Assembly: GCF_947500985.1 (NCBI RefSeq)
Contig: NZ_CANMTX010000008.1
Location: 59,669-123,668 of the forward strand
Direction of reading: 5' to 3'
From: an uncultured Maribacter sp.
GTDB taxonomy: Bacteria; Bacteroidota; Bacteroidia; Flavobacteriales; Flavobacteriaceae
DNA length: 64,000 nucleotides
Part shown: positions 24,009 to 39,967 of the stretch, one piece after another
How the letters are laid out: each line of letters opens with the position of its first letter
How positions within the stretch are numbered: the first letter of the stretch is position 1
Position numbers and translations under genes: made by a program
Notes under the pieces: generated by a model
Told to the model about the DNA's origin: nothing
Seen by the model: only the letters and a program-made list of their open reading frames with translations
Databases searched by the model: none

Positions 24009-26813
24009 ATGATATTGAAATCTTTATATAGCTTAATTTTTCTTTTTGCCTTGTGCGTCTCGGGTCAAGAGCTCCCACCAATTCAAAATTACACTCCTAT
24101 TGAATATAATGCTGGTAACCAGAATTGGTCTATTGCCCAATCTAATGAACAGACAATGTATGTTGCAAACAATAATGGATTGTTAGAGTTTAATGGAAAT
24201 ACTTGGAACTTGTATCAAGTGCCTTATGGCACTCCCGTAAAATCTGTTATGGTTTTAAATGAAAGGGTGTTTACAGGCAGTTATATGCAATTTGGGTATT
24301 GGGTACGTAATGAATTTGGAGTTTTGATCTACACATCTATTTCTGACCAGTTGAAAACACCGCTTATTGAAGATGAAGATTTTTGGAATATATCGCATTT
24401 CAAAGACTGGGTTTTATTTCAATCATTAGATAGAATTTATATTTACAATATTAAAAAGGCAACATTTGAAATTTTGGATGCCAAAAGTAATAGCCCTAAA
24501 ATATTTGAATTAGGCAATAAAATATTTTTTCAAAAGCTGGGTGAAGGTTTATTTACATTAGAGAATGGAGAGCCTATTTTAGTGTCTGATGACTTAATCC
24601 TTAAGCAGACTAATGTAGTTGGTGCATTTCTTGCGGATAATAGAATACTAATCATTACAGAACAGGCAGAATTCTTTTATCTAGAAAATAATATTCTAGT
24701 TGAATGGAAATTGCCTGTAGAGACAGATTTATATCTGAGTAAGATTTATAGTGCTATACGTTTAAATGATGGGTCTTATGTCTTGGGTACAATCTCAAAA
24801 GGCATATTTCAATTAGATGTAAATGGTAATATCATAAGAAATATTAATCAAGAAAAAGGTCTTAACAACAATACAGTATTGTCGTTATTTCAAGATATAG
24901 ATAATAACCTGTGGCTTGGGTTGGATAATGGAGTTAGCGTTATCAATTTAGACTCGCCTTTTAAAGAATATATTGACCATGTAGGGGCTTTAGGTGTTGT
25001 TTATACTGCTAATAAAAAAGGTGATTTTTTATATTTAGGTACAAATCAAGGACTGTTTTATAAAAAATATCAAGAAGGAAATGCTTTTAAACTCATTAAA
25101 GGTACCCAAGGTCAAGTTTGGTTGTTAAAAGAAATTAACGGTACATTATTCTGTGGTCATCACAATGGAACTTTTGTTATATCGGATGATACTGCTACGA
25201 AAATTTCAGAAGTTTCAGGTACATGGGATATTCAAAGTATAGAAAATAAACAAGAATTGCTAATTCAAGGTAATTATAAGGGTTTAAGTGTACTTGAGCA
25301 AATCGGTGATAAATGGCAATACCGAAATAGTATTGATGGTTTTGATAGTTCAAGTAGATTTTTTGAGTTCGTCGGAGAAAATCATTTACTGGTCAATCAT
25401 GATTATAAGGGAATTTTTGACTTGCAAATTAACCCCGAATATAAGAGGGTTGTAAAACTAAACAGTAGGGAGTCTAAAGGTAATGGTTCTAGCTTGGTTA
25501 GATTTAAGGGTGATATTCTTTATAGTACTATTAACGGTGTTTTCAAATACAATATAAATCAACATGAATTTTTAATAGATTCAGTACTGACAAGCAAATT
25601 TTTTAATGCTGATGAGCGTATTATCGGCATACTTCAGGCGACTAACAATTTCGAAAGGTTATGGGGATTTACTAATGATAATATAATTACTGTTTCTAAT
25701 GGGTATTTAAGTAAAGAACCACAAACGGTTAAAATTTCAATTCCAAATTTTTTTAGGCGTAGTATGGGAATCTTAGGTTTTGAATCTATCGTGCATATAG
25801 ATAAAGATCTTTATTTGATAGGTATTTCTAACGGTTATGTCACTTTAGATTTAAGTGAAGTTAAACAGAGTGATTATCAAATAATGATAAATTCTGTTTC
25901 TGGAAAGTCTAATGAGGTCCCTAAAATTGATATTTCTCTTCAAGACAATCAAGAATTAGAGTATTCAGAAAATAACGTAAGTTTTAGTTATAATGTTACA
26001 GAGTATGATAGATATACAGAGGTGTATTATCAAAACAAATTAAAAGGTTTAAATGAAGAATGGAGCACTTGGTCACTTATTCCCAATACTTCCTTTGATA
26101 ATCTGCCGTATGGCTCTTATGAGTTTAAGGTGAGGTCCAAAGTGGGTAATAGTATGTCAATTAATACAGCTGTTTATAGCTTTAAAATTCTAAGACCTTG
26201 GTATGCGTCATATTGGGCTATTTTATGTTATGTCATACTAGCAGCTTTAATCTCTTTTCTAATTCACAGAAATTATAAGAACTATTACAAGAAACAGCAA
26301 AATCAACTTATAAAAGCTAATAACAAACGATTAAAACGTAAGAAACTAAAAAACCAGAAGAAGATAGTTCAAATAAAAAATGATCAATTACAAGAGCTTG
26401 TTGATAGTAAAAATAGAGAGTTGGCAATCTCTACAATGAGTATTATTAAGAAGAATGAGTTTTTAAGTGCTATTAAAGATCAATTGAAAAGTAGCACTGA
26501 TAACCCAAAGGTGAAATCTGTTATTAAAACTATTGATAGAAATATTAATAATGAAGACGATTGGAAATTTTTTGAAAGTGCATTTAATAATGCAGATAAA
26601 GATTTCTTGAAAAAGGTGAAAGAAAAGCACTCTGAGCTATCTGCTAATGATCTAAGGTTGTGCGCCTACTTAAGATTAAACCTGTCTTCTAAAGAAATTG
26701 CACCTCTTTTGAATATATCGGTCAGAAGTGTTGAGGTGAAACGATACCGCCTGCGTAAAAAAATGAAACTTCCACGTGAAACTGGTTTAACAGACTATAT
26801 CATCAGTTTATAA
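24009..26813 (+). CDS. One-component regulator: periplasmic beta-propeller + Y_Y_Y domain + TM + LuxR-type HTH
   Basis: Signal peptide, NQNW and LWLGLDNG propeller repeats, PYGSYEFKVRS...FKILRPWY, C-terminal LCAYLRLNLSSKEIAPLLNISVRSVEVKRYRLRKK. Confidence 0.9.
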   Translation: MILKSLYSLIFLFALCVSGQELPPIQNYTPIEYNAGNQNWSIAQSNEQTMYVANNNGLLEFNGNTWNLYQVPYGTPVKSVMVLNERVFTGSYMQFGYWVRNEFGVLIYTSISDQLKTPLIEDEDFWNISHFKDWVLFQSLDRIYIYNIKKATFEILDAKSNSPKIFELGNKIFFQKLGEGLFTLENGEPILVSDDLILKQTNVVGAFLADNRILIITEQAEFFYLENNILVEWKLPVETDLYLSKIYSAIRLNDGSYVLGTISKGIFQLDVNGNIIRNINQEKGLNNNTVLSLFQDIDNNLWLGLDNGVSVINLDSPFKEYIDHVGALGVVYTANKKGDFLYLGTNQGLFYKKYQEGNAFKLIKGTQGQVWLLKEINGTLFCGHHNGTFVISDDTATKISEVSGTWDIQSIENKQELLIQGNYKGLSVLEQIGDKWQYRNSIDGFDSSSRFFEFVGENHLLVNHDYKGIFDLQINPEYKRVVKLNSRESKGNGSSLVRFKGDILYSTINGVFKYNINQHEFLIDSVLTSKFFNADERIIGILQATNNFERLWGFTNDNIITVSNGYLSKEPQTVKISIPNFFRRSMGILGFESIVHIDKDLYLIGISNGYVTLDLSEVKQSDYQIMINSVSGKSNEVPKIDISLQDNQELEYSENNVSFSYNVTEYDRYTEVYYQNKLKGLNEEWSTWSLIPNTSFDNLPYGSYEFKVRSKVGNSMSINTAVYSFKILRPWYASYWAILCYVILAALISFLIHRNYKNYYKKQQNQLIKANNKRLKRKKLKNQKKIVQIKNDQLQELVDSKNRELAISTMSIIKKNEFLSAIKDQLKSSTDNPKVKSVIKTIDRNINNEDDWKFFESAFNNADKDFLKKVKEKHSELSANDLRLCAYLRLNLSSKEIAPLLNISVRSVEVKRYRLRKKMKLPRETGLTDYIISL

Positions 26814-27112: not shown

Positions 27113-29197
27113 ATGAAAAAATTAAAGTACATCATGGTATCGGTATTTGCAGTAATGATGAGCTGTGATGGTGATGACATTGATATTCCAGAATCGGTTA
27201 CGCCTTCTAATCTTACAGTTAGTGCTCAAAATATGGGCGAAGGTGTATTTGACTTTTCAGCATCTGCAACGAATGCTAATTATTATCATTATGATTTTGG
27301 TGATGGTACCACTGCTTTAGAAACTTCTGGGGCAACTTCTAAAACCTATGAAGAAATAGGTGATAATATGTATACCGTTACCGTTACCGCAGGTTCTACT
27401 GAAGGTAAAAAGATTTCTGAGACTATAGATGTTTCTGTTTCATTAGCATTTACCGACACTGAAACGGTGACTTTCTTAACGAATGACAGTTCAAAAACAT
27501 GGTTTTTGGCAGCATCTCAACAGGGTCATCTAGGACTAGGACCTGCAAGGGAAGGAATTGATGGAGATTGGTGGTACCCTAAATGGTTTTCTGCTTCTGC
27601 ATTTGAAAAATGTGGAACGGAAGATTCTGATTGTCTTTGTGATGATGAGCTTACTTTTTCAGTAAATGAAAATGGAGGTTTAGTTTACACTTTAGATAAT
27701 AAGGGTCAAACTTATTTTAACGTTGGTCATAAAGCCGTTGTAGGTGGTGGAGAAGATATTGATTTTTGTTATGATTTTGATACTTCGGGCGAAAAAGCAG
27801 TTCAACTTTCTGAAGTAGAGGGTAATGTTCCAGAGGGTGAGACAACCGGAATACAAATGACATTTTCTGATGGAGGTTTCATGGGATACTATGTAGGTTC
27901 TTCTGTTTATGAAATACTATCTATTAGTGATGATTTCTTATATGTAAGAACGTACGATACTGAGAATGCAGATTTAGCATGGTACCATAAATTTACTTCA
28001 GATGTTGCTGTTGATGGTGGTGAAGAAAGTCTTGAGACCATTTATACCAATTTAGTTTGGTCAGATGAGTTTGATGTTGATGGTGCACCAAACGCTGCTA
28101 ATTGGGGTTATGACCTTGGCGCAGGTGGCTGGGGTAATGGTGAGGCTCAAACTTATACAGATGCAGCTGAAAACGTAAAAGTTGAAGACGGTGTTTTAAA
28201 AATCACTGCTATAGCTGGTGAGGGCGAAGCAGCTGTTCACTATTTTGACGAAATGACTTTGAGTGATGGAAGTGGCGGTACGCAAACTTTAGAAGATTTT
28301 GAAGGTGCAGCTCCTGTTTTTACTGGATTTGGAGGTGTTGGAACTGCAGTAATTGCAAATCCGGATCCTACGGGAGAGAATACTAGTGCTAATGTGGCAG
28401 AATCTACTAAAACTTTAGGTGCTGAAACATGGGCAGGTTCTTTCTTTGATTTGTCTGCACCGGTTGATCTTGTTGCTTACCCTAATATTAGTTTAAAAAC
28501 ATGGTCGCCTGCTACTGGAGCCAATATAATTTTGAAACTTGAAAATCAAGCTAATGCTGATGAGAATGTTGAGGTAAGTGTTAATTCAACTGTTGCTAAT
28601 GCTTGGGAAACACTAAACTTTGATTTCACTGGTGTTCCAGTTGGTACTTATGACCGAGTTGTGTTGTTTTTTGATTTTGGTGTTTCTCCTTCTGGCGGAA
28701 TTACTTCAGGTCGTATTAAATCTGAAAACTTATACGAGTTTACTTATGGTAGAGTTGAGATAAGAGCTAAGCTTCCATCTGCCGGAGGTACTTGGCCTGC
28801 ATTATGGGCTTTAGGTGCTAATTTTGATGAAGTTGGTTGGCCTACAGCTGGAGAGATAGATATTATGGAACATGTTGGCAATAATAACAATACCATTAGT
28901 AGTGCATTACATTATCCTGGTAATTCTGCAGGTAATGCTATAGTGGGATCTACACCAGTTGAAAATGCAACTTCTGAGTTTCATAATTATACTGTAGAGT
29001 GGACACCTGATAGCATTAAGTTTGTTGTAGATGATCAGTTAGTTCATAACAGTTTTGTGAACAACGCTACAACACCATTTAACGCCGATTTCTTTTTGAT
29101 AATGAATGTCGCTATGGGTGGTACATTAGGTGGTAGTATCGATGCGGAATTTATAGAAGATACAATGGAGGTTGATTATGTGAGAGTGTATCAATAA
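27113..29197 (+). CDS. Lipoprotein GH16 (laminarinase-like) with PKD domain and an inserted module
   Basis: Lipoprotein signal ending MMSC; YDFGDG PKD motif; LVWSDEFD, WPALWALG and catalytic GEIDIMEH (E-x-D-x-x-E) motifs. Confidence 0.88.
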   Translation: MKKLKYIMVSVFAVMMSCDGDDIDIPESVTPSNLTVSAQNMGEGVFDFSASATNANYYHYDFGDGTTALETSGATSKTYEEIGDNMYTVTVTAGSTEGKKISETIDVSVSLAFTDTETVTFLTNDSSKTWFLAASQQGHLGLGPAREGIDGDWWYPKWFSASAFEKCGTEDSDCLCDDELTFSVNENGGLVYTLDNKGQTYFNVGHKAVVGGGEDIDFCYDFDTSGEKAVQLSEVEGNVPEGETTGIQMTFSDGGFMGYYVGSSVYEILSISDDFLYVRTYDTENADLAWYHKFTSDVAVDGGEESLETIYTNLVWSDEFDVDGAPNAANWGYDLGAGGWGNGEAQTYTDAAENVKVEDGVLKITAIAGEGEAAVHYFDEMTLSDGSGGTQTLEDFEGAAPVFTGFGGVGTAVIANPDPTGENTSANVAESTKTLGAETWAGSFFDLSAPVDLVAYPNISLKTWSPATGANIILKLENQANADENVEVSVNSTVANAWETLNFDFTGVPVGTYDRVVLFFDFGVSPSGGITSGRIKSENLYEFTYGRVEIRAKLPSAGGTWPALWALGANFDEVGWPTAGEIDIMEHVGNNNNTISSALHYPGNSAGNAIVGSTPVENATSEFHNYTVEWTPDSIKFVVDDQLVHNSFVNNATTPFNADFFLIMNVAMGGTLGGSIDAEFIEDTMEVDYVRVYQ

Positions 29198-29219
29198 TAG
29201 AAGTTTATTTTAAATTTTT

Positions 29220-29255
29220 AAAAGGCTATCGAAAATATTTTCGATAGCCTTTTTT
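29220..29255 (+). terminator. Intrinsic terminator after GH16
   Basis: Perfect palindrome AAAAGGCTATCGAAAATATTTTCGATAGCCTTTT plus T run. Confidence 0.85.
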
Positions 29256-29348
29256 ATTTTATGTTTTAAAATTAATGAGTGTTATTGCTTCATATTATTT
29301 TACTCTGACACATATGAAATGATCTTGTGTTAGTAAAATGCTGAAATG

Positions 29349-29378
29349 AAAAAAGCCCCTTTTGCAAGAGGCTTTTTT
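29349..29378 (-). terminator. Intrinsic terminator for the minus-strand small-ORF transcript
   Basis: AAAAAAGCCCCTT/AAGAGGCTTTTTT; the single mismatch is a U-G wobble only on the minus strand. Confidence 0.75.
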
Positions 29379-29418
29379 ATAAAGTAATTTTTTTCAATAA
29401 GGGTTTGGTTTTAAAAGA

Positions 29419-29541
29419 TTAGACAATCCCTAGAAGGGCTAAAAAAGCTCCTACTACGACTACAGCTAAAAATGCATGCATTGCAATTACGAGCACGGAT
29501 AGATAAGTTTCTACTCCGGTTTTAAATGATAAATTGTTCAT
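29419..29541 (-). CDS. 40-aa membrane peptide MNNLSFKTGVETYLSVLVIAMHAFLAVVVVGAFLALLGIV (not in ORF track)
   Basis: Translated by hand; long hydrophobic helix; terminator 40 bp downstream. Confidence 0.65.
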   Translation of the reverse strand: MNNLSFKTGVETYLSVLVIAMHAFLAVVVVGAFLALLGIV

Positions 29542-29768
29542 AACATTACCTACTTTAAAGTTACATTACTAAAGTTAGCTGAATTAAGCAACAATTCCAT
29601 ATAAAATGTTGTAAAACTCTCATAATTAGCTGTATAATCCTACTTTTTAGTGGTTTAAGGTTTTTGAAATGTGCATTTCAACCTTGAAAAAGGTATCTTG
29701 TCGATATCTGAAATACAACACTCTATAAACTTTCACTACATATTGTAGCATTTGTCGGTAATGTTATG
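29539..29768. repeat. Perfect 12-bp inverted repeat CATAACATTACC (29539-29550) / GGTAATGTTATG (29757-29768)
   Basis: Read directly; arms 206 bp apart; one arm covers the 40-aa ORF start codon. Confidence 0.8.
29701..29727. promoter_or_regulatory. Bipartite motif TCGATA-N15-TCTATA (second exact copy)
   Basis: TCGATA 29701-06 and TCTATA 29722-27; same hexamers and spacing as 14532-14558. Confidence 0.55.
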
Positions 29769-29775
29769 GTAACAT

Positions 29776-29913
29776 CTATTTAATTAGATTCAACCAATCT
29801 GCTACACCTGCCAAGGGTACTGATAATAGTATTATTACTAAGCAGGTAATCATTAATTTAAGAAATCCGTTGAGTATTTTAACTCCTGAAGTTAGTTCTT
29901 GTTCCATAATCAT
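29776..29913 (-). CDS. 45-aa membrane peptide MIMEQELTSGVKILNGFLKLMITCLVIILLSVPLAGVADWLNLIK (not in ORF track; alternative start 29907)
   Basis: Translated by hand; one hydrophobic helix; same orientation and similar layout as the 40-aa ORF. Confidence 0.6.
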   Translation of the reverse strand: MIMEQELTSGVKILNGFLKLMITCLVIILLSVPLAGVADWLNLIK

Positions 29914-30088
29914 TGTTCTATTGTTCTGCTTTCAATATGGTAGATCTAACCTAAAGTGCTGTTAAATAGGAGGGTAAAATCGATTAACGTATAGAAAGTA
30001 TCTGTATAAAGTATGTTTTCTATACAATAACTAGTAGTTATGAAAATGGTTTACTAAATAATATAGGGGGTAGTTAATTGAATATAAT

Positions 30089-31336
30089 TTAATTATTCGA
30101 TGTTAAAACTGCATTTAATTTAGAAACAATACGTTCGGTGGCACCAGCTTTTTCTTTGATGTAGCCTGTGTTTATACGACTGGTTTTTGACCTGTAGTTA
30201 TTATCTTCAAAGCACTTATCTGCATGCTCTTGAAATTCATTATCGTTCTTTATAGAAATGACACCTCCTAGTTGTACCAATTCTTCTGCCTCGGCAAATC
30301 CATCATACTGTGGACCTATAATAACCGGGATACCGAAGACAGCTGGTTCTAATGTATTGTGTAATCCTGTAGCAAAACCGCCACCTACATATGCGATGTT
30401 GGCATAGTTATATACTTTGGTCAAAATACCTATGGTGTCAATAACGATTACATCATATTCAGCTAAAGGTGCATTCTCCATTTCTGTATAGCGTATTACT
30501 TTTTTGTCAATAGCTGCTATAATCTCTTCAATATGATTGTCTTTAATGGTGTGCGGAGCTATAACAAACTTGATTGGGTGTATGTTGTTATTAATGTAAT
30601 TTATGATGATTTTTTCGTCTTCTGCCCATGTGCTTCCCGCTACAAAGCAGTACTTATCATTTTTAAAGTGGATCATGAAATCTAATTCGTTGTCACGTTC
30701 TACTATTTCACTTACTCTATCAAAACGAGTATCCCCGGCAATGGTTACATTAGTGTATCCAACGGAATTTAATAATGATTTCGATTTTTCGTTTTGCACA
30801 AAAAAGTGCGAGAAGTTATTTAATGCGTTACGCATAAAACCACCATACCACTTAAAATAAATTTGATTGTCTTTAAATAATGCTGAAATTAAATAGGTTG
30901 GAGTATCAGCTTTTTTTAAGGCATTTAAGTAATTAGGCCATATTTCATACTTTATAAAGATGGCAATATCTGGGTGTGCGGCTGTCAAAAAGGACTTTAC
31001 TTTCTGCTTTGTATCCATTGGTAGGTAGCAAATAACATCAGCTATTTTGCTATTCTTTTTTACTTCGTATCCTGAAGGAGAAAAAAAAGTAATTACTATT
31101 TTATGTTTAGGATGATGAATTTTTAATTGTTCAATAACAGGTAGTCCTTGTTCGTACTCGCCTAAAGATGCTGCATGAATCCAAATAACGCTGTCGTCTT
31201 TTGAGATAGACTGCTTAATTAACGAAATAGTTTCTTTTCTGCCCTTTACAAATAGCGATAGTTTTGAATTCACCAATGCCAATACCTTTAAAATGGCAGA
31301 TGCGCTTATGACAAGAAGATTATAGAGAAAGTTCAA
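30089..31336 (-). CDS. waaA: 3-deoxy-D-manno-octulosonic acid (Kdo) transferase
   Basis: WIHAASLGE, ITFFSPSG, GDTRFDRV, VAGSTW and GLHNTLEPA motifs. Confidence 0.93.
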   Translation of the reverse strand: MNFLYNLLVISASAILKVLALVNSKLSLFVKGRKETISLIKQSISKDDSVIWIHAASLGEYEQGLPVIEQLKIHHPKHKIVITFFSPSGYEVKKNSKIADVICYLPMDTKQKVKSFLTAAHPDIAIFIKYEIWPNYLNALKKADTPTYLISALFKDNQIYFKWYGGFMRNALNNFSHFFVQNEKSKSLLNSVGYTNVTIAGDTRFDRVSEIVERDNELDFMIHFKNDKYCFVAGSTWAEDEKIIINYINNNIHPIKFVIAPHTIKDNHIEEIIAAIDKKVIRYTEMENAPLAEYDVIVIDTIGILTKVYNYANIAYVGGGFATGLHNTLEPAVFGIPVIIGPQYDGFAEAEELVQLGGVISIKNDNEFQEHADKCFEDNNYRSKTSRINTGYIKEKAGATERIVSKLNAVLTSNN

Positions 31337-31425
31337 ACAGATGCTTTTAAGCTAAATTACGTTTCTTCCATAAAATTAGTGTCGTCTGTTTCGTATTTTT
31401 GTACGACTTCATGTAATTACAACAG

Positions 31426-32580
31426 ATGAAAAAGATACAAATGGTAGACCTAGGTGGTCAATACCAAGAAATTAAAGATCAAGTAAATACTTCTATAACT
31501 CAAATTTTAGAAACGTCGGCATTTATAAACGGACCGGAGGTTCATGCTTTTCAGAAGGAGCTAGAAGATTACCTTCAGGTCAAGCATGTTATACCATGTG
31601 CCAATGGCACCGATGCTTTGCAAATAGCAATGATGGGTTTAGGTTTGAAACCTGGTGATGAGGTTATTACAGCAGATTTTACTTTTGCTGCAACAGTTGA
31701 GGTCATTGCATTGTTACAGCTGACTCCGGTTTTGGTAGATGTTTATCCAGATACGTTCAATATCAATATAGAAGCTATAGAAAAAGCAATAACGCCAAAA
31801 ACGAAAGCTATTGTTCCCGTTCATCTTTTTGGTCAATGTGCTAATATGGATGCTATACTTGAGTTGGCAAAAAAACATGATTTATTCGTTATTGAAGATA
31901 ATGCTCAGGCAATTGGAGCTAAATATCTTTCAAAAGATGGTGCAAAGCACATGGCAGGTAGTATGGGTAATGTAGGTGCAACATCTTTTTTTCCTTCTAA
32001 AAATTTAGGTTGTTATGGTGATGGTGGAGCAATTTTCACCAATGATGATGAATTAGCTCATACCTTACGTGGCATTGTTAATCATGGTATGTACGAACGT
32101 TACCATCATGATGTAGTTGGTGTTAATTCAAGATTAGATTCTATACAGGCCGCAGTGTTGAGAGCTAAATTACCTAAGCTAGATGGTTATTGCGATGCAA
32201 GAAGAAATGCCGCTCGTGCGTATTCAAAAGCATTTGAGGGTCAAGAACATATTATTACGCCAGTAACGGTAAATAATTGTGAGGGAATTTGCGATGTGTG
32301 TGATTGTCATGTTTTTCATCAATATACTTTGAGAATTACAAATGGTAAAAGAGATGAATTAGGGCAATTTTTAGCTAAAAATGAAGTTCCTTTTGGTGTC
32401 TACTACCCAATTCCGTTACATAAGCAGAAAGCTTATCTAGATGATCGATATAAGGAAGAAGATTTTCCTGTGACGAACCAGTTGGTAACAGAAGTAATGT
32501 CTTTGCCTATGCATACAGAATTAGATGAAGAACAGATTAACTACATAACTGAGTTAATTATCGGATTTGTAAACGGGTAG
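31426..32580 (+). CDS. DegT/DnrJ/EryC1/StrS family aminotransferase
   Basis: CANGTDALQIA, IEDNAQAIG, SFFPSKNLGCYGDGG; TATTTTTG promoter element at 31394-31401. Confidence 0.93.
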   Translation: MKKIQMVDLGGQYQEIKDQVNTSITQILETSAFINGPEVHAFQKELEDYLQVKHVIPCANGTDALQIAMMGLGLKPGDEVITADFTFAATVEVIALLQLTPVLVDVYPDTFNINIEAIEKAITPKTKAIVPVHLFGQCANMDAILELAKKHDLFVIEDNAQAIGAKYLSKDGAKHMAGSMGNVGATSFFPSKNLGCYGDGGAIFTNDDELAHTLRGIVNHGMYERYHHDVVGVNSRLDSIQAAVLRAKLPKLDGYCDARRNAARAYSKAFEGQEHIITPVTVNNCEGICDVCDCHVFHQYTLRITNGKRDELGQFLAKNEVPFGVYYPIPLHKQKAYLDDRYKEEDFPVTNQLVTEVMSLPMHTELDEEQINYITELIIGFVNG

Positions 32581-37171: not shown

Positions 37172-39967
37172 ATGGATAAATATTCCTTTTTAAATACCGT
37201 TCATACCTCTTTTTTTTCAGAGTTATACGATAAGTACTTAGTAAATCCAGATAGTGTAGAGCCAAGTTGGAGAGCCTTTTTTCAAGGATTCGATTTTGGA
37301 ATGGAGAGCTCTTTAGATGAGCTGGAAATCGATGAAAATCGCACTACAGTTGTAGTAAATGGCCACTCGAGTGAAATGCCAGAATCTCTTCAAAAAGAGT
37401 TTCAGGTAATTCGATTAATCGATGGTTATAGAAGCAGAGGTCATCTGTTTACTAAAACAAATCCCGTACGTGAGCGAAGACATTACGAACCAACTTTAGA
37501 AATTGAAAACTTCGGATTAGCTTCGTCTGATCTCGATACTATTTTTAATGCAGGTGACGTAATTGGTATAGGTCCAAATTCTTTAAAAGAGATTGTTAGA
37601 CATTTACAAAGTATCTATTGCGATGCTATTGGTGTAGAGTATATGTATATACGAAAGCCAGAGCGCGTTAAATGGATTCAAGATTGGATAAATGTAAATG
37701 ACAATCATCCGAATTTCGAGCCAGATCGTAAAAAGCACATTCTTAAGAAGCTTAATCATGCTATTTCTTTCGAAACTTTTTTGCATACTAAATATGTAGG
37801 GCAAAAAAGATTTTCTTTAGAGGGAAATGAATCGTTGATCCCTGCCTTAGATGTAATTGTAGAGCGCGCCGCTGAAATGGGTGTGAAGCAATTTGTTATG
37901 GGTATGGCACACCGTGGTAGATTAAATGTGCTTACCAATATATTTGGCAAATCGGCTAAAGATATCTTTAGTGAGTTTGACGGTAAAGATTACGAACAAG
38001 AGATTTTTGATGGAGACGTTAAGTATCACTTAGGTTGGACCTCTGATAGAAAATCTGATAACGGAAATAAAATTAAGATGAGTATTGCTCCTAATCCATC
38101 TCACTTAGAGACGGTAGGTGCAGTTGTTGAAGGTATTGCTAGAGCAAAACAAGATGCTGATTATCAAGATGATATTTCTAAGGTTTTACCTATTGTAGTT
38201 CATGGTGATGCTGCAATAGCAGGTCAAGGTTTGGTCTATGAAGTAGTTCAAATGGCTGGTCTTGATGGGTATAAGACTGGTGGCACCATACATATAGTTG
38301 TAAACAACCAAATTGGGTTTACTACGAATTACTTAGATGCTAGAACGTCTACTTATTGTACCGATGTTGCTAAGGTAACATTGAGTCCGGTATTACATGT
38401 TAATGCAGATGATGCAGAGGCGGTAGTACACGCATCTCTTTTTGCGTTAGAATATAGAATGCGCTTTAAGGGTGATGTATTTATAGATTTGTTAGGATAT
38501 AGAAAATACGGGCATAATGAAGGTGATGAGCCAAGATTTACACAGCCTAAATTATATAAAGCAATATCAAAGCATAAGAATCCAAGAGATATCTATGCGG
38601 AAAGACTGATTCAAGAAGGTGTTATTGATGGCACTTATGTAAAGCAGTTAGAAAAACAGTATAAAGATTCTCTAGAAGAAAAATTAGAAGATTCACGTAA
38701 AGAAGATAAAACTGTAATTACACCGTTCATGGCAGATGAATGGAAAGGTTTTGAAAATGTACGTGAGTGGGAAATGATGGATGCGGTGAATACTAAATTC
38801 ACTAAAACTAAATTGAATAAAATTGCCAAAGTAATTACGGCTTTACCAGAAGGTAAAAAGTTTTTACGTAAAGTTGAGAAATTGGTTAAAGACAGATACA
38901 ATATGTATTTTGAAGCCGATAATCTTGACTGGGCAATGGGAGAACTTTTGGCATACGGGTCTTTATTAGAAGAAGGTTATGCGGTTCGTATGTCTGGACA
39001 GGATGTAGAGCGTGGTACCTTTTCTCACCGTCATGCGGTAATGAAAGTTGAAGAAAGTGAAGAAGAGGTTATTTTATTAAATCACCTTTCTGAAAAGCAA
39101 GCTAAATTTCAAATATACAATTCACTATTGTCAGAATATGGTGTGGTAGGTTTTGACTATGGTTACGCCATGGCTAGCCCTAATACATTAACTATTTGGG
39201 AAGCACAATTTGGAGATTTCAGTAATGGAGCTCAAATTATGATTGACCAGTATATTTCTGCGGCAGAAGATAAGTGGAAGCTTCAAAACGGTTTGGTAAT
39301 GTTATTGCCACACGGTTATGAGGGGCAAGGTGCTGAACACTCTTCTGCGAGAATGGAGCGTTACTTACAATTGTGTGCTAAGGATAATATGTATATAGCA
39401 GATGTGACTACACCAGCACAAATGTTCCATATTCTTCGTAGACAAATGAAGTCTAATTTTAGAAAGCCATTGATCATATTTACTCCTAAGAGTTTGTTGA
39501 GACATCCAAGGGCGGTATCTAAAATTGCTGATTTAACCGGTGGTGGTTTCCAAGAAGTAATAGATGATGAAACTGCAGATGCTAAAAAGGTAAAAAGTTT
39601 AGTATTCTGTACAGGTAAGTTCTATTATGATTTGCTAGCTGCTAAAGAAGAGAACAATAGAGGTGATGTTGCTTTGGTAAGGGTGGAGCAGTTGTTTCCT
39701 ATACCGGAAAAACAAATGAATGCGGCTATTGCAAAGTATAAAAATGCAGATGACGTGGTGTGGGCTCAAGAAGAACCTAGAAACATGGGTGCATGGAGCC
39801 ATTTATTAACGCATTTTGATGAGGCTCGAAATTTTAGAGTAGTGTCTAGACGTTTTTATGCGGCACCTGCAGCAGGTAGTTCTGTACGTTCAAAAGCACG
39901 TCACCAACAAGTTATAGATTACGTCTTTGACAAGACAAAGGACAATATGTCCAAACCTAAAAAATAA
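37172..39967 (+). CDS. sucA: 2-oxoglutarate dehydrogenase E1
   Basis: [31 protein letters not shown] and [16 protein letters not shown] promoter element at 37129-37136. Confidence 0.97.

Follow-up and report, generated by a model that had tools for sequence, protein, structure and literature searches.

We analyzed a 64,000-nucleotide (nt) stretch of DNA from an uncultured Maribacter sp. (contig NZ_CANMTX010000008.1; the whole stretch is called the window here) with regard to two small genes, pep1 and pep2, which are located in the 890-nt gap between a GH16 gene and waaA, the gene for 3-deoxy-D-manno-octulosonic acid (Kdo) transferase (Table 1). Both genes run in the same direction as waaA and are convergent with GH16, and the gap also contains a hairpin with a U-run. 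In an initial annotation, made from the sequence alone, the pair had been described as two co-oriented open reading frames (ORFs) of 40 and 45 amino acids (aa). The two minus-strand ORFs and the hairpin were confirmed at the positions described, as was their shared layout of a short polar N-terminus followed by a single strongly hydrophobic stretch; with regard to the two lengths, the 40 aa of pep1 stood, while the conserved start of pep2 gives 43 aa instead of 45. ORFs of 20–50 aa are frequent in this AT-rich gap, so the presence of the pep1 and pep2 ORFs was by itself weak evidence for genes, and conservation was the deciding test.

Table 1. Positions in the window of pep1, pep2, their associated signals and the two flanking genes.
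Feature	Positions	Strand	Details
pep1	29419..29541	-	40 aa, MNNLSFKTGVETYLSVLVIAMHAFLAVVVVGAFLALLGIV, plus stop
pep2, from the conserved start	29776..29907	-	43 aa, MEQELTSGVKILNGFLKLMITCLVIILLSVPLAGVADWLNLIK, plus stop
pep2 as first described (45-aa ORF)	29776..29913	-	extra in-frame ATG at 29913, two codons 5´
pep2–pep1 spacer (pep1 leader)	29542..29775	-	distal third unconserved
Two TAACTTTA boxes	29570-29577, 29556-29563	-	in the last 40 nt of the leader (29542-29581)
Intrinsic terminator of the pep2–pep1 unit	29349..29378	-	GCCUCUU-GCAA-AAGGGGC core between an A-run and a U-run
Predicted -7 promoter box of pep2	29932..29939	-	CATATTGA here, TATATTGA or TATCTTGA in most relatives
Candidate regulator-binding site	29974..29990	-	ACGTTAATCGATTTTAC with palindrome AATCGATT
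GH16 gene	27113..29197	+	PF00722
waaA, Kdo transferase gene	30089..31336	-	PF04413

The genome scan was performed with one genome per species and yielded 36 loci in Maribacter, Pareuzebyella and Pricia, with a single locus in each genome. pep2 was intact in all 36 of them, and pep1 was intact, on the same strand and 3´ of pep2, in 34 of the 34 Maribacter loci. The pep1 frame always comprised 40 codons and the pep2 frame 42–43 codons counted from the conserved Met, and no indels were observed in either ORF. This was in contrast with the spacer between the two genes, which carried many indels and was found in 21 distinct lengths (207–279 nt). Variable sites at codon positions 1, 2 and 3 numbered 22/5/37 in pep1 and 32/15/38 in pep2, so that variability followed the order 3 > 1 > 2 in both genes. 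Pooled ratios of non-synonymous to synonymous variation (pN/pS) were 0.22 for pep1 and 0.28 for pep2 in the proposed frames, compared to 0.32–4.4 in the other five frames. Further, none of the 34 distinct pep1 sequences and none of the 36 distinct pep2 sequences contained a stop in the proposed frame. Stops were detected in 28–34 of the 34 pep1 sequences in every other frame and, across the two genes, most non-proposed frames contained stops in nearly all sequences.

Loss of the reading frame in relatives had been named in the initial annotation, next to missing ribosome footprints, as an outcome that would speak against the two peptides. The search for homologs and the selection analysis that it had suggested instead returned relatives with intact frames, which are under purifying selection throughout the genus and, in the case of pep2, also across genera. 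Judged by these codon patterns, pep1 and pep2 are almost certainly real, selectively maintained genes. Each of them encodes a small protein (<~50 aa) with a genuine conserved coding frame and a single transmembrane helix.

The start of pep2 was revised on the basis of the aligned loci. Codon 1 of the 45-aa ORF reads AAG, AGG, AAT or ATT in seven loci (L012, L013, L016, L029, L031, L032 and L035), and this first ATG is also missing in all other genera, whereas codon 3 (29907) is an invariant ATG. Because codon 3 is kept and codon 1 is not, pep2 most likely starts at 29907 and encodes 43 aa. This start is preceded by an A at -3 and an A-rich leader, both of which agree with the Bacteroidetes initiation rules (PMC6847099). 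In hydropathy analysis, the best 19-aa Kyte–Doolittle window of pep2 reached 2.61 (residues 18–36), and an AlphaFold2 model built from the family alignment consisted of one helix (residues 7–38) with a predicted local distance difference test score (pLDDT) of 84.

Protein searches placed pep2 in 15 clusters, in which all named hits were from Maribacter and all were called ‘hypothetical protein’; the nearest cluster, P0009 (NCBI/JGI/ENA), which is 93% identical, likewise bears the name ‘hypothetical protein’. Further matches were found in M. ulvicola, M. spongiicola, Z. roscoffensis and others. A pep2 profile run against 1.84 billion representative proteins detected 21 representatives (50% identity level), and a profile of the distant pep2 members run against 5.8 billion proteins detected 459 clusters (90% identity) at E ≤ 0.01. 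These 459 clusters came from Maribacter, Zobellia, Muriicola, Costertonia and Pelagihabitans as well as from unnamed metagenomic sources, and none of them had a Pfam domain or a name. Taken together with Pricia and Pareuzebyella, the pep2 family, with a size of 42–43 aa and at least 459 clusters, occurs in at least seven genera, within a clade of marine Flavobacteriaceae. Its consensus, ME[QE][EQ][IL]T.G.K.LNGFL[KR].M, is followed by one hydrophobic helix, and conservation was strongest in this polar, amphipathic N-terminal juxtamembrane segment rather than in the helix core. Existing database records give no family, domain or function for these proteins, and several carry a wrong, longer start (versions of 56–89 aa). 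One weak match to the pep2 hidden Markov model (HMM) inside the window (39364-39621, minus strand, E = 0.0013) lies antisense within a 931-aa gene and was rejected as spurious.

The best 19-aa Kyte–Doolittle window of pep1 reached 2.75 (residues 16–34), and its helix is highly conserved, with a small-residue face. Here, protein searches returned eight clusters, again with all named hits coming from Maribacter and being called ‘hypothetical protein’; an entry from M. zhoushanensis SA7 shares 98% identity with pep1. The gene was present in 34 of the 36 genome loci, all 34 belonging to Maribacter, and in 32 metagenome loci retrieved in a scan seeded with pep1. In each of the 31 metagenome loci having upstream sequence, pep2 was located 5´ of pep1 at a distance of 230–400 nt, and pep1 was accompanied by pep2, at ~210–400 nt overall, in 65 of 65 loci (34 genome and 31 metagenome loci). 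No match to a pep1 HMM was obtained in six-frame translations of the loci of Pareuzebyella, Pricia, Zobellia, Costertonia, Muriicola, Pelagihabitans and ‘Maribacter vaceletii’. On this distribution, pep1 is a young, Maribacter-restricted gene, fully coupled to the older pep2 in a one-way dependence.

We also noted a two-codon mini-ORF (AUG UUA UGA, 29539-29547, minus strand), which overlaps the start codon of pep1 in a different frame; it occurs in most Maribacter species and is missing from six distant ones (L022, L025, L027, L028, L030 and L035). Such a location is unusual for Bacteroidetes, in which the surroundings of start codons are depleted of AUG (PMC6847099).

According to the initial annotation, the two peptides may be diverged paralogs, and a [T/S]GV motif had been listed in their shared layout. 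A scenario in which pep2 was duplicated in the ancestor of Maribacter and the tandem copies diverged strongly would fit their common orientation, similar length and layout, and the G-V at nearly equal position, as well as the fact that pep1 is lineage-restricted and always located beside pep2; TCGA-containing boxes are also found upstream of both genes. However, BLASTP of pep1 against pep2 gave no alignment at E ≤ 100, and profile–profile comparison with hhalign gave a probability of 17% at 14% identity, which is the level expected of two hydrophobic helices. An alignment anchored on G-V contained 3 identities over 39 positions; as evidence of relatedness, a shared [T/S]GV tripeptide is too short to count, and its V is not kept in the wider pep2 family. 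The ranges of the two genes also differ, with pep2 in at least seven genera and pep1 in Maribacter only. A duplication of the promoter region was considered as well and rejected, since the pep1 leader gave no match to an nhmmer profile built from the sequence upstream of pep2. No test lent support to paralogy for these very short sequences; the two peptides are not detectably related at the sequence level, and we regard an origin by tandem duplication as improbable.

In the region upstream of pep2, a [C/T]ATATTGA block approximately 25 nt 5´ of the start codon is conserved across Maribacter, and it was predicted to be the -7 promoter box. It resembles the flavobacterial TAnnTTTG and TAnnTTGY boxes. 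In Flavobacterium psychrophilum, the sigma-A -7 box reads TAnnTTTG, with TAnnTTGY as a one-base-shorter variant, and occupies positions -12 to -5, with a median 5´ untranslated region (5´UTR) of 24 nt (PMC9723704). Among the loci compared here, an exact TAnnTT[TG]N at about -32 was found in 17 of 45, vs. 4.1 in shuffles. Transcription of pep2 is predicted to start near 29927, which would give a 5´UTR of ~20 nt.

The most conserved non-coding block 5´ of pep2, near-invariant in Maribacter, was the one at 29974-29990, which we consider a candidate regulator-binding site. TCGA-containing boxes are present at comparable positions 5´ of pep2 in all the other genera read, including Zobellia, Costertonia, Muriicola and Pelagihabitans (L037-L045). 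We also observed that TCGA-centered boxes occur 5´ of pep2 (29978-29985, AATCGATT) and of pep1 (29700-29705, ATCGAC; CGATGAAAT-like). A shared regulator might bind at these boxes; when the upstream regions of pep2 and pep1 were compared by profile, no significant match was obtained.

The spacer between the two genes is at the same time the leader of pep1. Mean pairwise identity rises along it toward pep1, from 0.32 (distal part) through 0.57 (proximal part) to 0.81 (last 40 nt). Conserved blocks in the proximal part comprised ATCGAC, a CGATGAAATGC-like block, ACCACAAAAA and TTTTACAAC; besides the TAACTTTA boxes, the last 40 nt hold a nearly invariant AAAGTAGGTAATGTT just 5´ of the pep1 ATG. 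A structured RNA or riboswitch in this leader was considered and rejected, as RNAalifold applied to 29 pep1 leaders gave only an invariant 5-bp hairpin and no covarying structure, and Rfam returned nothing credible, with all hits far below gathering scores. Given that neither covarying structure nor a near-threshold Rfam hit was found, conservation of the leader lies at the primary-sequence level, such as in a promoter, operator or initiation region. A third small ORF in the spacer (20 aa and 34 aa, at 29561-29623 and 29647-29751) was discarded too, owing to non-triplet indels throughout and poor conservation.

The hairpin at 29349-29378 had a folding energy of -15.8 kcal/mol (z-score -4.1) on the minus strand and of -12.0 kcal/mol (z-score -1.9) on the plus strand, in line with the earlier statement that this terminator is better on the strand of the peptides. 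GH16 possesses a strong terminator of its own (29220-29253). Of 35 sequences folded, nearly all showed a hairpin and T-run ~40 nt past the pep1 stop. The stems differ between species, which indicates that pairing has been kept through compensatory changes. The ~40 nt of the pep1 3´UTR (29381-29418) are conserved.

In the clade of the window, only weak hairpins were found directly 3´ of pep2, and pep2 and pep1 appear to constitute one short unit of ~0.55 kb, running from its own putative promoter to the hairpin at 29349-29378. Distant Maribacter species (L025, L026, L029, L030, L035 and L036) showed a clear hairpin and T-run terminator right after the pep2 stop. Since pep2 has a terminator in these species, pep1 must also be able to start alone from its conserved leader, and pep2 and pep1 are probably transcribed separately there.

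With regard to the pep2 3´UTR, common motifs (TTCCCCAAA..., CCTATTTATTGTT and ATTTTGACAA) were observed before the terminator in Costertonia, Pelagihabitans and ‘Maribacter vaceletii’ (L039, L041 and L042). They are located about 10–90 nt past the pep2 stop and might represent a 3´UTR-derived RNA element. An insertion of pep1 into an ancestral pep2 3´UTR was proposed from a CCCTTATTG-like motif that, by eye, the pep1 3´UTR of Maribacter appeared to have in common with the pep2 3´UTR of other genera, and this was rejected on an nhmmer score of 2.7 bits, no better than that of shuffled targets.

RNA from the locus was detected in two independent metatranscriptomes. In the marine data set X29, two short contigs, which abut near 29665 when diverged ends are allowed for, span ~29403-29898. 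They cover pep1, its leader and pep2 at a depth similar to that of other window genes; waaA and GH16 were uncovered. In the seawater data set X33, one contig extends from 29519 to ~100 nt beyond 29615 and includes the pep1 start and the long leader. X29 and X33 show the presence of RNA; transcript ends, strand and translation are beyond these data. Data sets X25-X28, which are labelled ‘TRANSCRIPTOMIC WGS cDNA’, also cover the locus (compared over 29200-31500). As evidence of expression they were given little weight, since their contigs are 5–89 kb long with inconsistent breakpoints and thus DNA-like.

The gene order at the locus comprises an epimerase gene and a DegT-type aminotransferase gene on the opposite strand, waaA, sometimes a major facilitator superfamily (MFS) gene, pep2 and then a varying flank. 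This order was kept wherever the upstream flank was recovered, i.e., in 35 of the 36 genome loci and in all nine further loci examined. An MFS sugar-transporter gene is located between waaA and pep2 in Costertonia, Muriicola, Pelagihabitans, Pricia, Pareuzebyella and two metagenomic lineages, and GH16 adjoins the locus in only some Maribacter species. Judged by this gene order, pep2 is vertically inherited as the final gene in the co-oriented row behind waaA, with or without the MFS gene in between.

We propose, with a probability of about 0.6, that pep1 and pep2 encode single-pass accessory or regulatory proteins of the inner membrane. Each peptide would insert with its N-terminus in the cytoplasm, because lysines are located on the N-terminal side of the helix, and would bind to a larger protein of the inner membrane, acting as its regulator or small subunit. 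In the case of pep2, the contact surface would be the amphipathic juxtamembrane segment GVKxLNGFLKxM at the cytoplasmic face; this is the best conserved part of the protein, which argues for a specific contact at that face of the membrane. The contact of pep1 would be formed by the small-residue helix face AMxAFLAVVxVG, as the conservation of the helix together with such a face points to helix–helix packing.

WaaA works at the cytoplasmic face of the membrane, and the unbroken linkage to waaA weakly suggests a partner in envelope or lipopolysaccharide (LPS) assembly. This connection to LPS or WaaA, for which synteny is the sole pointer, is rather unlikely. No more likely is its most specific form, in which pep2 would be a dedicated partner of WaaA, or of LPS-core assembly on the cytoplasmic side of the inner membrane, throughout the clade and pep1 a young, Maribacter-specific second component recruited to that module. 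If true, pep2 and pep1 would constitute an unrecognized small-protein control layer of outer-membrane biogenesis in Bacteroidota.

Several observations weigh against the proposed role. Neither peptide gave hits at E ≤ 10 in Pfam, NCBIfam, PADLOC or the PDB sequences, the best match in PHROGs was weak (E = 0.013) and of unknown function, and literature searches on a WaaA-linked small membrane protein or on Maribacter small proteins found nothing relevant; a regulator role is without backing from any known family, structure or partner. Translation of pep1 and pep2 is inferred, the data being at the level of RNA contigs, which are unstranded, assembled and of low depth (2.7–4.3), and X25-X28 may be largely DNA. 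The promoter call is derived from approximate motif matches, and the copy in the window has one mismatch. Finally, synteny inertia may be all that lies behind the linkage to waaA: pep2 is preceded by a conserved region of its own, and the MFS gene separates waaA from pep2 in at least five genera.

In enterobacteria, small inner-membrane regulators (PmrR, MgrB, AcrZ and MgtS) and small subunits of complexes (CydX and KdpF) act by binding a larger membrane protein, which in the case of PmrR is a lipid A-modifying enzyme. pep1 and pep2 resemble these proteins in their size of <50 aa, the one transmembrane helix with short polar ends, a short gene of their own and conservation within a clade, and PmrR is the nearest in theme because its target modifies lipid A. 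Unlike the enterobacterial proteins, they come from another phylum and form a unit of two unrelated peptides, and there is no sequence similarity between the two groups (Pfam, NCBIfam and PDB searches being empty). Further, for pep1 and pep2 binding to a larger membrane protein is a proposal.

The initial annotation had also hinted at type I toxins. These are small hydrophobic, membrane-damaging peptides, for instance TisB, Hok, Ldr, Ibs, ShoB and Fst, which an antisense or overlapping small RNA restrains. One or both of the peptides would suit this class as small, hydrophobic, single-helix products of 40–43 aa that are encoded in an intergenic region in a short unit with its own terminator. 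The pep1 leader is likewise long and conserved in sequence, with 25 nearly invariant nt before the start codon, and a sigma-70-like match (TTGTAA-18-TATAAT) is present on the opposite strand at 29609-29638; the sigma-70 consensus, however, is not the flavobacterial promoter type (PMC9723704). The distribution of the peptides also differed from that of such toxins. We found a single locus per genome at a fixed syntenic place in 36 genomes, with pep2 extending across at least seven genera, which indicates vertical, housekeeping-like inheritance, whereas type I systems are usually patchy and multi-copy and often reside on mobile elements. No relatives of pep1 or pep2 were found in 2.9 million viral contigs, plasmids being outside this search. 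Neither an antisense RNA nor a conserved sense-strand structure in the pep1 leader was detected, the available RNA data being unstranded, and Rfam gave no hit near threshold. In addition, selection on pep2 is strongest in its polar, amphipathic N-terminus and does not act on hydrophobicity alone. Hence, a toxin function of either peptide seems quite improbable, and we prefer to regard both as accessory or regulatory membrane proteins.

The conservation could in principle stem from an RNA with a non-coding or dual function (a small RNA or cis-regulatory element), with the ORFs being incidental. The non-coding block beside pep1 does equal the ORF in identity (0.81 from -40 to -1 and 0.81 in the coding sequence), and RNA over the locus is present in metatranscriptomes. 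However, the strong three-base periodicity and low pN/pS are confined to the proposed frames, the ORFs are free of indels and stops next to an indel-rich spacer, and neither a conserved secondary structure nor an Rfam family near its gathering score was found, so this explanation is very unlikely. A true gene on the plus strand at the pep2 position can be practically dismissed: one antisense frame (29776-29907, plus strand) is stop-free in 33 of 36 sequences, but its start and end are not kept, it extends variable distances into the promoter region and its pN/pS of 0.46 is less favorable than the 0.28 of the sense frame, which has an invariant ATG, a kept stop position and a coherent transmembrane helix. 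Both explanations are contradicted by the codon-level evidence, and the open antisense frame is probably a by-product of the codon-biased sense frame.

In Bacteroidota, small membrane proteins often escape annotation and have hardly been studied, and pep1 and pep2 provide two cleanly supported examples. Databases already contain their ORFs here and there under the name ‘hypothetical protein’, in some records with an incorrect start; what is new is the picture at the level of families, the correction of the pep2 start, the constant location of pep2 behind waaA and the finding that pep1 depends on pep2 but not the reverse. The fixed waaA address of the pep2 family offers a testable lead to a possible LPS or envelope regulator in marine polysaccharide degraders of ecological importance, and pep1 is a useful case of how new small genes arise and get fixed. 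These results justify naming the pep1 and pep2 families.

On the side of the locus facing GH16 (29349-29290), the pep1 terminator coincides with a synteny breakpoint: the epimerase/DegT/waaA/pep2/pep1 block is kept, and the neighbor beyond it varies by species (L001-L036). Pfam returned no match at E ≤ 1e-5 for a 934-aa ORF just 5´ of GH16 (24009-26813, plus strand), which nevertheless accompanies GH16 at 64–95% identity in several Maribacter loci and represents an uncharacterized large protein within a probable glucan-utilization cluster.

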